From Escherichia coli (GTDB lineage Bacteria > Pseudomonadota > Gammaproteobacteria > Enterobacterales > Enterobacteriaceae): a stretch of 64,000 nt of DNA. Positions 59,959 through 64,000 of the stretch are shown one piece after another. The DNA lies in NCBI RefSeq assembly GCF_041248615.1, contig NZ_CP158426.1; one strand, 5' to 3'. Below the pieces are notes generated by a model, which worked only from the letters and a program-made list of their open reading frames with translations, made no database searches and was not told where the DNA came from. Position numbers and translations under genes: made by a program. Within the stretch, counting starts at the first letter, position 1; each line of letters starts with the position of its first letter.

Positions 59959-60165
59959 TTACGGACGGGACTGTGCAATACGCGCCTGCAGCCAGGCTTC
60001 CACTTCACTTTTCAGCCAGCGGGAGCTGCGGCCGAGTTTGATGGGAGCCGGAAAGGCCCCATCCTTGATGAGCTTGTAAAACCACTTATCGGTCAGGCCG
60101 GTCAGCTGAGTGATAAACGTCATATCGACCATCTGGTCATCCATCAGCGAAACTGGGGTGGTCAT
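59959..60165 (-). CDS. alpA: AlpA-family (prophage CP4-57 regulatory) DNA-binding protein
   Basis: 68 aa; FITQLTGLTDKWFYKLIKDGAFPAPIKLGRSSRWLKSEVEAWL matches the AlpA/MerR-like HTH pattern. Confidence 0.85.
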   Translation of the reverse strand: MTTPVSLMDDQMVDMTFITQLTGLTDKWFYKLIKDGAFPAPIKLGRSSRWLKSEVEAWLQARIAQSRP

Positions 60166-60548: not shown

Positions 60549-61340
60549 TTATTCTCTGTAATTACAAACAACAGTGATCTGATCCGGTTTTTTTACCGTT
60601 ACGGGTTTCCGGGGATCAATTTTATAGACCGGGGTAATGACCACGCCGGAATTTATGGAGAAAAGCGGGATCCAGCAATAAACGTCCGGATATTTCTGTG
60701 TCTCCGGAATACCTTTTGTGCCAGAGGCCATCAGATCTTTAACGCTCACGAAAAATGACTTCCGCAGATCAAAAAAGTACTCGTTATATATCACATCCTT
60801 TGCCAGCAGGATGACTGCATTACCAACAGCCGATTTTACAGGTGTTTCATCAGGTGGATTATCGTGATTGTATATTGTTCTTTCTATATAAATAAAACAG
60901 GCATATTTCGTCTTCTCCCCGGATAGTTGCATCTGGTATTCGCAAATGTCTTTGATATACCGACTTTCAACCCTTCCAATCATCTTATCCCGGCGATAGT
61001 GTCTTTTATGTTTCAGCGCGTACAGAACACCATTTGAACTGTCAAACTCCAGGACACTTCTGGTGAAAAGTTTGTTTTCCCAGATCTCCAGACAATACTT
61101 CTCTGCACTGACGACATTGCGTTTGTGGGGAAGATTCCGTTGATACACTCCATTTAATAAGCGTGACTGCAGTTCGCCTGCAAGTTGATAGTAACAGTTA
61201 ATGTCATTAAGGACAGGTGCTGTGGCGTTGAGTAATGTGTTGATTACCTTAGAGCGCGAAAGTTTGTGGGTATGACAGTACTCATCCACAATTCGCAGTG
61301 TCTCATCACTGGTCATATTGAAAGTTATACGTGTTGTCAT
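60549..61340 (-). CDS. Hypothetical protein with N-terminal ribbon-helix-helix-like segment fused to an unassigned domain of about 210 aa
   Basis: 263-aa ORF in AT-rich DNA. The N-terminus TTRITFNMTSDETLRIVDEYCHTHKLSRSKVINTLL has the beta-strand, helix, helix pattern of CopG/Arc/MetJ proteins. The rest has no motif I recognise. Confidence 0.55.
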   Translation of the reverse strand: MTTRITFNMTSDETLRIVDEYCHTHKLSRSKVINTLLNATAPVLNDINCYYQLAGELQSRLLNGVYQRNLPHKRNVVSAEKYCLEIWENKLFTRSVLEFDSSNGVLYALKHKRHYRRDKMIGRVESRYIKDICEYQMQLSGEKTKYACFIYIERTIYNHDNPPDETPVKSAVGNAVILLAKDVIYNEYFFDLRKSFFVSVKDLMASGTKGIPETQKYPDVYCWIPLFSINSGVVITPVYKIDPRKPVTVKKPDQITVVCNYRE

Positions 61341-61670
61341 GATGAAGTTTTCTGTTAATCATACTGGTTGATATGCATAACATTTCATAAAAAATACTGT
61401 TAATTCATATAATTGATTTTTTGACTGGTTTTATCCTCGTGTGGTGGAAAGCAGTATTACTGCCACTGTAGTCAGCATAAATCTATCACACAGAACCACC
61501 GAAAATGAAGCATTGCTCAGGGGGAAGCTGCCACTCGTATGAGTTCTCTGAACCATGATAACCAGTATTTTTCGTTTTGGGTGATTTGTTTATCGTTACA
61601 GCTACATACAGTTCATGTACCATTAAAAAATAATAAAGGTTAATTAGTATTATTTATAGAAGTATGTTTA

Positions 61671-61748
61671 TGTAATTCTACCGTGTAAATGAACCCTGTA
61701 ATTCTACCTTGTAAATACACCTTGTAACCAAGTCCTGTAGAAGTCTGT
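61671..61748 (+). repeat. Six phased 13-bp tandem repeats with TGTAA/TGTAG core (two near-identical 26-bp units, then diverging)
   Basis: TGTAA(G) starts at 61671, 61684, 61697, 61710, 61723 and 61736. The units are tgtaattctaccg / tgtaaatgaaccc / tgtaattctacct / tgtaaatacacct / tgtaaccaagtcc / tgtagaagtctgt. Further CTGTA(A/G) copies are scattered to about 61960. Confidence 0.8.
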
Positions 61749-62018
61749 CTCATAGAAGTATCTGTGCAGTGATATTCTCTGTAGTAGTACTTGTAACTCT
61801 GTTCTTAACTCTCTCTTCAGTAATGTAGTCCCGCAACACCTGAATATAAATCTGTAATGTTCACACACTGACTGTAACGTGCTTTGTTAAGTAATGTCTG
61901 CTATTTTTTTTCTGTTATTTTTCCTGTTGTTTTCTGTATTTTGTTGTATGGTGTAATAACTATTCTGAACCCGTCATCACCTTTATAGCTAAGAGTATGA
62001 CTTCGCCAGTGTTGATAC

Positions 62019-62027
62019 TGTGGATAA
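62019..62027 (-). promoter_or_regulatory. Perfect DnaA-box 9-mer (TTATCCACA on minus strand)
   Basis: TGTGGATAA is read on the plus strand. This is a single copy, so it may be chance. Confidence 0.3.
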
Positions 62028-62756
62028 CGGTGATTAAGGAATTACTGTTAATGATCTGTTCCTGCAGCTCACCTGATGAGTTTTGGTAGTAATACGTAAA
62101 AGAGTATGCCTCATGTCATTAAAAAGTCTTCCGGAGTGTTGTTTAACCCTGTACCTCTGTTACTCATGTAGTACGTTGCGGAAAGCTACGTTAATTGTAA
62201 TATCTGGTTATGGCGTTATGCCTTCAGTATTAAAAACATCTTTTACCGGAGAAACTGGGAAGTGGAAAGGCTTTCGGGATAACGTCAGGCCATTATGACG
62301 ATATTACGTTAATCACAGTACAAGATAACGAGAGGGTAATGGAATTTTAAACCAGAGTAGTTCCACTGTTGTTCACTGGAAAAAGTGATTTCCCACGCGC
62401 GTTATAAGCTTACTCCAGAGGAGATGGAAGCCTTCAACTCTGCGGTCGATCACCGGCTGGCAGAACTGACCATGAACAAACTTTACGATCGTGTTCCCGC
62501 TTCAGTCTGGAAATATGTTACCTGATAAATGTTTCTGATGAAGTACAGTCGTCACAATGACATCACTTCAGATATTATCTGCGCTGTGATTGACTGTCAC
62601 GTATGCCGTTCTCTGTATGGTTCTGATACCCGGGTGTGGTCCCACTTTCTCTGTGGCGCCCGGGGAGTTGTGAACCTGCACGTCTTCGTGTGATAACGTT
62701 TTCTTCAAAAATTACGCCAGCGCTTCTTCCTGTGTTACAGAACACGAGGAAGAAAC

Positions 62757-63356
62757 ATGAAGACTTACAACACCAATCCCGGTTACGAAATGGATCCCCA
62801 GCTCCTGACACACTTTAACCAGCATCTGGATTCATTATTCGGGGTATATTCGAAACTGTTACCGTTCAGAATGGATTTTGCTTACCGAAAAAACACCCTC
62901 AGCTACAGATGTGCCTGCAGGTACGCCATGTGCGCGGAGATACTGCGACTGATTAACGAAGTGGGAGAGAAACTGGTCGGGTATGCCTGGGTAATGGAAT
63001 ATACGGAACGTAAAGGGCTTCACATTCATTTTGTGGGCTATCTGAACGGTCAGAGCCACAGGAGTTCGTATCTGGTATCCAGATTGATGGGAGATATCTG
63101 GAGGCGGGTTACCGGGGGGGATGGTTACTACCACTGGTGCCGGTTTAATAAAAATTATCCGGTAAACATTAACCACGTCATTCACTATTCAGATCACAAA
63201 GCGGTGAATGCCTTACGCTATGCCATCAGCTACCTGGCCAAACGAGAACAGAAAGAATGTGGCATCATCCTGAAATGCAGCGGGCTTCCTGAAAAAAGTA
63301 ATCGGGGTCGACCGCGACTGGGCAGCCCCCTGCCGGAGACTTATTCTCTGGTGTAA
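62757..63356 (+). CDS. YfjJ/YagK-family (inovirus Gp2-like) protein
   Basis: 199 aa; ..LPFRMDFAY.., GLHIHFVGYL and RYAISYLAKREQK parallel the K-12 YfjJ motifs as I recall them (..HYHVVLFL.., ..ISYLAKAKTK..). Confidence 0.75.
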   Translation: MKTYNTNPGYEMDPQLLTHFNQHLDSLFGVYSKLLPFRMDFAYRKNTLSYRCACRYAMCAEILRLINEVGEKLVGYAWVMEYTERKGLHIHFVGYLNGQSHRSSYLVSRLMGDIWRRVTGGDGYYHWCRFNKNYPVNINHVIHYSDHKAVNALRYAISYLAKREQKECGIILKCSGLPEKSNRGRPRLGSPLPETYSLV

Positions 63357-63516: not shown

Positions 63517-64000
63517 ATGGACGAAAAACAGTTACAGGCTCTGGCTAACGAACTGGCCAAAAACCTCAAAACCCCTGAAGACCTCAGTCAGTTTGATCGG
63601 CTGCTGAAAAAGCTCAGCGTTGAAGCCGCTCTCAATGCAGAGATGACACACCATCTTGGGTATGAGAAAAATCAGTCCAGACCAGGAGCTAACTCCCGCA
63701 ACGGTTATTCCACAAAGACCGTTATCACAGGCGACGGTCCACTGGAACTGCGTACTCCGCGCGATCGTGACGGTACCTTCGAACCACAACTGGTAAAGAA
63801 AAATCAGACCCGTATTACCGGGATGGATAACCAGATCCTCTCGTTGTATGCCAAAGGGATGACCACCCGTGAGATAGCCGCTGCGTTCAAAGAACTGTAT
63901 GACGCAGATGTTTCACCGGCACTGATATCAAAGGTTACCGATGCCGTGATGGAGCAGGTTGTAGAATGGCAAAACCGACCACTGGATGCTGTTTACCCCA
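63517..64000 (+). CDS. IS256-family transposase (IS1414-like), 3-prime truncated by window edge
   Basis: The ATG at 63517 opens a frame that runs to the window end: MDEKQLQALANELAKNLKTPEDLSQFDRLLKKLSVEAALNAEMTHHLGYEKNQSRPGANSRNGYSTKTV.... It is absent from the ORF track because there is no stop in the window. Confidence 0.85.
   Translation, partial: MDEKQLQALANELAKNLKTPEDLSQFDRLLKKLSVEAALNAEMTHHLGYEKNQSRPGANSRNGYSTKTVITGDGPLELRTPRDRDGTFEPQLVKKNQTRITGMDNQILSLYAKGMTTREIAAAFKELYDADVSPALISKVTDAVMEQVVEWQNRPLDAVYP

Follow-up and report, generated by a model that had tools for sequence, protein, structure and literature searches.

The stretch of DNA considered here, 64,000 nt from Escherichia coli and referred to below as the window, contains a chromosomal island in which two genes diverge from an AT-rich intergenic region at 61341–62756. 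The gene on the left encodes a protein of 263 aa and the gene on the right an inovirus-type Gp2 protein. Between them lie a short sequence, here called element E, and an array of 13-bp repeats that starts 17 bp past the end of the 17-bp core of E. Element E accompanies Gp2 genes in several genera, and we tentatively suggest that it might be the site at which Gp2 recognizes or nicks the DNA. The principal features are the following.

60549–61340, minus strand: gene of the 263-aa protein, Pfam PF27701 (UCP007319), which heads the leftward gene set
61630–61665, plus strand: element E, about 30 bp, with the core GGTTAATTAGTATTATT at 61638–61654 followed by TATAGAAGTAT, defined by cross-lineage comparison
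61671–61748, plus strand: 13-bp array of six units with the core TGTA(A/G), defined by Tandem Repeats Finder (TRF), shuffles and allele comparison
62757–63356, plus strand: Gp2 gene, inovirus-type, 199 aa, predicted to be HUH-type and Rep-like from RefSeq, Pfam and fold matches

In its extended form E reads TTAGGTTAATTAGTATTATTTATAGAAG, and reading the regions upstream of the Gp2 genes gave the shared form GGTT(N1–3)TTAGTRTWATT. A regular-expression search of 1.19 Mb of DNA found E upstream of Gp2 genes only and always on the Gp2 strand, and about 1 Mb of unrelated loci gave no match. All eight lineages examined, with Gp2 proteins 37–100% identical to that of the window, have E upstream of Gp2 and in the same orientation. 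These are E. coli class 1 (the window and 45 loci), E. coli class 2 (about 30 loci), Citrobacter, Pectobacterium, Hafnia, Orbus, Limnobaculum and one further lineage. Every class-1 or class-2 metagenomic locus with enough upstream sequence has E as well; seven diverged E. coli genomic copies and 80 metagenomic loci were compared. E. coli and Orbus have the same 17-mer, although Gp2 is only 41% identical between them. BLAST searches with E against plasmids and phages returned mainly AT-rich noise, and one further AlpA-YfjI-E-Gp2 locus was recovered. A full-text search of one literature library for the sequences of E and of the array found no paper, and the papers that mention such islands or Gp2-like genes are silent on this region.

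The distance from E to the ATG of Gp2 and the gene beyond E both vary between lineages, as listed here.

Distance from E to the Gp2 ATG: 198–225 nt in Orbus, Citrobacter, Pectobacterium and P0076; 304 nt in Hafnia; about 740 nt in E. coli class 2; 920–1150 nt in E. coli class 1, with or without hha
Gene beyond E: UCP007319 in class 1, Citrobacter and Pectobacterium; the 3' end of yfjI (DUF3987) in class 2; unrelated proteins of 392 and 328 aa in Hafnia and Orbus

The 263-aa protein is thus absent from class 2, Hafnia and Orbus though E is present there, and E is independent of the gene on its far side, with Gp2 as its sole constant partner. An E-like sequence, GGTTAATTAGTAATTTTTATATAA, was also seen in the Morganella plasmid NZ_MT701512 (L230:3015–3040), 160 bp 3' of a gene for an IS91-family two-tyrosine HUH transposase, and may be a chance occurrence in AT-rich DNA.

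The Gp2 protein contains LHIHF at residues 88–92 (HUH 89–91) and YAISYLAK at residues 155–162, with tyrosines at 155 and 159, both motifs being invariant in an alignment (A3), and this order, HUH before the tyrosine pair, is that of Rep proteins and not of relaxases. HxH is retained in all these Gp2 lineages and YxxxYxxK in all except P0076; the class-2 protein is 61% identical to that of the window and those of the other lineages 37–41%. Two Pfam families, PF23343 (REP_ORF2-G2P, E = 3e-5) and PF11726, match just below their cut-offs. The AlphaFold2 model, with a predicted local distance difference test score (pLDDT) of 82, has Rep nuclease domains among its top fold matches, weakly. Gp2 is likely an HUH Rep-like nuclease.

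The 13-bp repeat array

A preliminary description of this DNA had listed six phased repeats, and the cores lie where it placed them, with TGTAA at 61671, 61684, 61697, 61710 and 61723 and TGTAG at 61736, each 13 bp apart. Two unit types, A (TGTAATTCTACCK) and B (TGTAAATRMACCY), alternate and hence give a second period of 26 bp; TRF reported 2.2 copies of period 26 (87% matches) and 3.7 copies of period 13. Within the 64 kb of the window a run of four TGTAA cores in 13-bp phase is found only here, 100 shuffles produced none, and four pairs of cores at 13-bp spacing were observed where 0.08 would be expected, so that the phased array is real and far beyond chance. The same four-core pattern was too loose for a scan of a contig collection, which returned at least 120 unrelated tandem repeats from all phyla. 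The possibility that the repeats are the remnant of a known insertion sequence (IS) or prophage gained no support, as there is no phage match and no IS is annotated over the region. Two direct repeats flank the array.

61657–61665, plus strand: left direct repeat TAGAAGTAT, identified from the repeat family and the L180 allele
61753–61761, plus strand: right direct repeat TAGAAGTAT, the partner of the copy at 61657

In a survey of 46 related E. coli loci 26 alleles were found, 2–175 bp long and with 0–10 strict cores, whose spacing is mainly 13 bp and also 12 and 8 bp. In E. coli the position of the array is constant; in Citrobacter and Pectobacterium there is no array. The array is a hypervariable, copy-number-variable and dispensable minisatellite. 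One allele, L180, is without any array, which can be ascribed to recombination between the flanking TAGAAGTAT copies. Some strains have a hexanucleotide microsatellite, (CTACCT)n, nested inside the array (L008:2660–2720 and L005, 3 and 9 copies). Four old unit types all retain TGTA(A/G), and every other position, eight in all, differs among them. In the class-2 islands of E. coli, short allele-variable repeats of another sequence (GTTATGTTATCT, TGTGGTATC) also stand directly after E.

Candidate roles of element E and of the array

Element E could be the site that Gp2, as an HUH-type protein, recognizes or nicks, with the repeats as lineage-specific accessory sites or as a by-product of activity at this place; this is the reading that we put forward, and we do so tentatively. 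Gp2 would then recognize, and probably nick, the excised island at E, which would serve either as a rolling-circle double-strand origin or as an origin of single-strand transfer. The repeats after E would be accessory Gp2-binding sites, or the scar of illegitimate recombination at the nick site, and their number would be free to drift. HUH nick sites are known to keep a short AT-rich core fixed while the initiator diverges, as in the origins of CRESS viruses, the pMV158 family and phiX174/pC194, and the constancy of the short AT-rich core of E beside a diverging Gp2 suggests a site of this kind. The layout, with a core, lineage-specific repeats, AT-rich DNA and the initiator gene on one strand, resembles that of M13 and IKe and argues in the same direction. 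The repeats are read as accessory sites or as a scar because they are placed where rolling-circle origins carry initiator-specific binding repeats. Nick sites are also hot spots of illegitimate recombination, as work on M13 and pC194 has shown, and such a hot spot would explain why unrelated repeats stand at one spot in two island classes.

The origin-like module proposed in the preliminary description may thus be kept in a form that is centred on E and travels with Gp2, and not in one centred on the variable and dispensable array. An HUH-type origin-like role is the best supported, with modest confidence; an operator or centromere bound by a ribbon-helix-helix (RHH) protein is weakened and a DnaA origin is rejected. 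It is a wider and rather doubtful proposal that E is nicked by a two-tyrosine HUH family, that tRNA-linked islands replicate by rolling circle after excision or exit as single strands, and that the repeats are specificity determinants or a scar of recombination at the nick. If it were true, tRNA-linked enterobacterial islands (pheV- and CP4-57-like, Ag43/CbtA-bearing), which are usually treated as inert remnants, would gain an origin and an initiator. Islands of this type bear Ag43, capsule-linked and toxin-antitoxin modules. The constancy of E while Gp2 falls to 37% identity gives a concrete target of 17–30 bp for assays, and the natural alleles with 0–10 units could show whether repeat number tunes activity at E or at the divergent promoters. 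With 26 alleles in 46 loci the array is also a possible typing marker. If E is merely a promoter and the array is neutral, the finding is an ordinary one.

Several observations weigh against E as a Gp2 site. No conserved or significant hairpin was found around E (z from –1.6 to +1.4), and folding of the intergenic region as single-stranded DNA gave no hairpins like those of single-strand origins, only 62581–62700 being structured. Hexamers like a -10 region are present in E (TATTAT, TATAAT), so that it may be a promoter. The L180 allele does without an array, the commonest allele has three of its eight cores mutated (TGTCA, CGTAA, TGCAG), the spacing varies between 13, 12 and 8 bp, and no repeats are evident after E in Hafnia, Citrobacter, Pectobacterium or P0076. 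The core shows little protection: it holds 6 of 28 changes where 10.8 would be expected (P = 0.045), a figure taken from 28 distinct units in a sample biased by unit recognition. The matches of Gp2 fall below curated or significance thresholds, the Pfam score being 24.7 bits against a cut-off of 27.8 and the best Foldseek E-value 2.6e-3, and Gp2 has no detectable homology to gpII of phage IKe (hhalign probability 0.2%). Among E. coli variants the intergenic region is about 95% identical, no better conserved than the third codon positions of the flanking genes (also about 95%). What these variants share is thus a matter of recent ancestry that says nothing about selection, and conservation within them was dropped as a sign of it. 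Finally, yfjJ of K-12, a distant family member, is without E; with 24% identity to Gp2 and an upstream region of 152 bp (L233, MG1655 2760395–2760546) it was rejected as a model. A mobilome study detected no activity of the cryptic prophages of K-12, but the yfjJ present there is this distant relative without E.

It is possible, though again doubtful, that E is instead the promoter or operator of a rightward gp2 operon, kept by a host factor or a conserved regulator, and that the repeats lie in the early leader as an operator, a roadblock or a spacer. In most lineages the corresponding position of E holds a -10-like hexamer, which reads TATAAT in Citrobacter and Pectobacterium and TATTAT (61648–61653) in E. 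coli and Orbus. In the compact lineages E precedes the Gp2 start codon by about 200 nt. For gp2-alpA, an operon in Citrobacter, Pectobacterium and Hafnia, there is no other evident promoter, and the leader ends in a hairpin sequestering the Shine-Dalgarno sequence, which suggests that gp2 expression is regulated. The -35 hexamers, however, are poor in all lineages, Hafnia and P0076 read TGTTAT and so do not have the key A of a -10 region, and the best-conserved bases of E (GGTTAATTAG) are not those of a promoter consensus. AlpA is an unlikely reader of E, since the class-2 AlpA is only 29% identical to that of class 1 and the E core is the same in both. The antitermination by AlpA/ABE in Pseudomonas was rejected as a model, the P. 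aeruginosa 'AlpA' antiterminator being a different and much larger protein of eight helices, in which the numbering of contact residues reaches 142.

Somewhat unlikely is a reading in which the array has no sequence-specific function and all function resides in E, the array being a neutral minisatellite in AT-rich DNA silenced by H-NS and Hha that grows and shrinks by slippage between TGTAA microhomologies. Such drift is illustrated by the 26 alleles of the 46 loci, with their 0–10 cores, units of 13, 12 and 8 bp and nested (CTACCT)n, and by the loss of the whole array through the TAGAAGTAT repeats in one allele. The mutated cores of the commonest allele, the weak core protection, the absence of the array from other genera and a G+C content of 32–37% are also in favour. 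In strain 042, Hha and H-NS repress this island module (PMC6480617), which we count for the neutral array as well. On the other side stand the four old unit types, which keep TGTA(A/G) while their eight other positions all differ, and the unrelated repeat at the same place after E in class 2, which indicates that the place of the repeat is important, whether or not its sequence is.

Two further features bear on the roles that the preliminary description had considered for the neighbouring 263-aa protein and for DnaA.

61345–61385, minus strand: motif TTATGCA-N11-TATGATTAACA, proximal to the 263-aa gene, found with blastn
62019–62027, minus strand: DnaA box TTATCCACA, a single consensus 9-mer

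That the array is an operator or centromere-like site bound by an N-terminal RHH domain of the 263-aa protein appears improbable. In E. coli the array and the 263-aa gene are always found together, and the N-terminus of the protein has a strand-helix-helix pattern and a weak match to DUF6364 (E 0.08–0.13). On the minus strand the units also give pairs of -35/-10-like hexamers aimed at the 263-aa gene, among them ATTACA-N16-TAGAAT, formed by the units themselves, and ATTACA-N16-AATAAT, which spans the first repeat unit and E, so that a leftward promoter towards this gene is possible in class 1; in class 2 nothing lies leftward of E for such a promoter. The label of RHH-domain gene could not be confirmed, as the AlphaFold2 model (pLDDT 45) is too poor for a fold search and no relative of the protein with a solved structure was found in the PDB. 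Citrobacter and Pectobacterium have a 52–57% identical 263-aa orthologue, divergent from Gp2 and with nearly the same N-terminus (RITF.xT), yet their intergenic region of about 390 bp has no hha and no TGTAA array. The class-2 repeats, conversely, occur without the protein. Neither a partition ATPase, ParA or ParM gene nearby nor any partition NTPase within 12 kb on either side is annotated. A distance of 330 bp separates the array from the start codon of the 263-aa gene, whereas the cross-genus motif lies within 45 bp of that codon. This motif is located in the 65 bp beside the start that are all that aligns between E. coli and Citrobacter/Pectobacterium (blastn, 62–64% identity, reaching 61405); it and E are the only intergenic parts that the window shares with Citrobacter and Pectobacterium, and the motif may be the core promoter or the operator of the UCP007319 gene.

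One perfect DnaA box, AT-rich DNA and direct repeats could be adduced for a DnaA-dependent, plasmid-like origin of theta type that used the 13-bp units as iterons. Such an origin is very improbable, since the box is single and, as had been cautioned, of chance frequency (0.44 expected per window, at least one in 38 of 100 shuffles), no box was found in the same region of other Gp2 lineages, there is no RepA-type initiator gene, the units are 13 and not 17–22 bp long, and no plasmid replicon matches.

Other features of the region and of the island

The remaining features are listed first and then described.

59959–60165, minus strand: alpA, from the RefSeq annotation
61451–61463, unstranded: palindrome GCAGTA-T-TACTGC, from the sequence and the variant alignment
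61780–61957, plus strand: unphased TGTA(A/G) copies at 61780, 61792, 61824, 61853, 61873 and 61952, in T-rich DNA
62191–62360, plus strand: region upstream of hha, 170 bp, 79% identical to an IncHI2 plasmid
62339–62525, plus strand: remnant of an Hha/YmoA-family gene, with the ancestral ATG at 62339, a TAA at 62348 and a RefSeq coding sequence (CDS) at 62376–62525
62723–62754, plus strand: hairpin CTTCTTCCTGTGTT-ACAG-AACACGAGGAAGAA, the 3' arm of which covers the Shine-Dalgarno sequence of Gp2

The region had been taken as 1.4 kb of noncoding DNA; it holds a broken hha-family gene, and the truly intergenic part amounts to about 1.0 kb (61341–62338). The remnant matches PF05321 (HHA) with E = 5e-20 over profile positions 16–57 alone, the N-terminal third being lost to deletions and an in-frame stop, and the RefSeq CDS has 49 aa and a non-ATG start. 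Strain F11 has an intact hha of 70 aa at the equivalent place, compared with which the copy in the window has 26 nt of deletions. About half of the related loci are without the gene, and we conclude from these comparisons that hha came into the intergenic region as a cassette. An inverted repeat, CCCGGG...CCCGGG at 62610–62665, is the sole significantly structured stretch (z = –2.9 as single-stranded DNA) and is deleted in the variants without hha.

Hairpins equivalent to that before Gp2, of other sequence, cover the Shine-Dalgarno sequence in every Gp2 lineage (L138, L142, L228, L227, L009, L012, L226), which suggests a conserved translational control of Gp2; RNAalifold was uninformative here, as the sequences do not align.

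About ten more copies of the repeat core had been described after the array. Six TGTA(A/G) are found in 61746–61960 against 2.0 expected, with a post hoc P = 0.007 for a zone chosen afterwards, and from E to hha, with the array excluded, there is no enrichment of TGTA, with 11 copies where 8.2 would be expected (P = 0.16). The strand bias of TGTA, 15:2, follows from the T-rich composition, the stretch 61901–61951 is missing in three of eight variants, and no enrichment of TGTA downstream of E was found in other lineages. The scattered copies are largely explained by local base composition. The palindrome is present at 61451–61463 as had been noted, at a level expected by chance (a rough estimate gives about 0.3 such palindromes in 1.4 kb), and is perfect in this allele alone, the seven other E. 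coli variants all having a G at 61456 that breaks it. We take the palindrome, like the DnaA box and the hha cassette, to have been added later or to be incidental.

The region has a G+C content of 32–37% and an AT skew of –0.3, i.e. it is T-rich. No terminator-like sites were found in it, and an Rfam search (E ≤ 1) over 59–64 kb gave nothing relevant. Small open reading frames in 61341–62338 were rejected, given a poly-G run of varying length, an ATG at 61539 that is not conserved and the loss of 61901–61951 in three variants. The poly-G run, at 61520–61525 in the window, has 4 to 7 bases across E. coli variants.

The stretch is identical (100%) to E. coli NRZ14408 (NZ_LT599825), where the island adjoins the kps/gsp region, and the region is carried by about 700 of 5,426 complete E. 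coli genomes. Leftward of the 263-aa gene follow alpA, a hypothetical gene of 205 aa and genes for a GTPase, Ag43, DUF932, antirestriction, RadC and CbeA/CbtA. On the other side IS1414 (63518–64000) separates Gp2 from a pair of DUF7828 zinc-ribbon genes that in most related islands stands directly 3' of Gp2. The cassette formed by the UCP007319 or other gene, the intergenic region and the divergent Gp2 gene is flipped relative to alpA between E. coli and Citrobacter, Pectobacterium and Hafnia, as seen by comparing L009:4721–6798, L012:4745–6795 and L142:1652–4884: alpA follows the 263-aa gene in E. coli (59959–63356) but follows Gp2 in the three other genera. The pattern is suggestive of an old inversion or of reassorted modules.

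Comparison with known systems

Rolling-circle double-strand origins consist of a nick site and nearby binding sites for the initiator, as in the nic and bind loci of pMV158, or in circoviruses and nanoviruses, where the nonanucleotide TAGTATTAC and adjacent hexamer iterons lie between the divergent cap and rep genes. The locus resembles them in having a rep-like gene of HUH type beside a short conserved AT-rich sequence in fixed orientation, in its divergent intergenic setting, and in the lineage-specific direct repeats that directly follow E in both E. coli classes. In addition, TAGTATTAT in the E core matches the nonanucleotide at 8 of 9 positions, which is a lead and not a test. It differs in that there is no conserved stem-loop at the E core, the repeats number anywhere between 0 and 10 and several lineages have none, and the carrier is a chromosomal island and not a small circle. 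Many families present their nick site in a hairpin or cruciform, but phiX174 does not. Gp2, with two tyrosines in YxxxY, is in this respect like the A proteins of phiX174 and P2 and unlike the Reps of CRESS viruses, which have a single tyrosine.

The plus origins of the Ff phages and IKe offer a likeness in layout. In M13 the gpII nick is 225 nt 5' of gene II, on the strand of that gene, and the repeats to which gpII binds follow at once on its 3' side; in IKe the nick is about 320 nt 5' of gene II on the coding strand. Element E is likewise on the strand of Gp2 and 198–225 nt 5' of it in the compact lineages, and its place before repeats and AT-rich DNA corresponds to the initiator-binding repeats immediately 3' of the phage nick and the AT-rich DNA before gene II. 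The sequence TTAATTAGT in E resembles TTTAATAGT at the Ff nick site, again as a lead and not a test. The locus differs in that Gp2 shows no detectable homology to IKe gpII and that there are no large minus-origin or packaging hairpins and no phage structural genes.

With the conjugative origins of transfer (oriT) of RP4, R388 and F the locus shares a divergent intergenic region between a nuclease operon and genes like those of a leading region (DUF932, antirestriction, RadC), and a putative RHH accessory protein next door. Gp2 has the motif order of Rep proteins, however, whereas relaxases have the tyrosine before HUH, neither a coupling protein nor any known nic consensus is present, and no plasmid oriT in PLSDB was matched. 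Arrays bound by RHH proteins, such as the omega heptads, the parC site of ParR and the 13-bp element of CopG, also consist of short head-to-tail repeats upstream of what may here be an RHH gene. They differ from the present array, which is not kept where the protein is kept, has no partition ATPase with it and is unconstrained in spacing and copy number.

The array itself is most like a bacterial variable-number tandem repeat, with tandem repeats of 13/26 bp, copy-number polymorphism between strains, a nested microsatellite and deletion by way of flanking repeats. It is unlike a plain repeat of this kind in being fixed immediately 3' of the deeply conserved E, with an unrelated repeat at the same place in the sister class.

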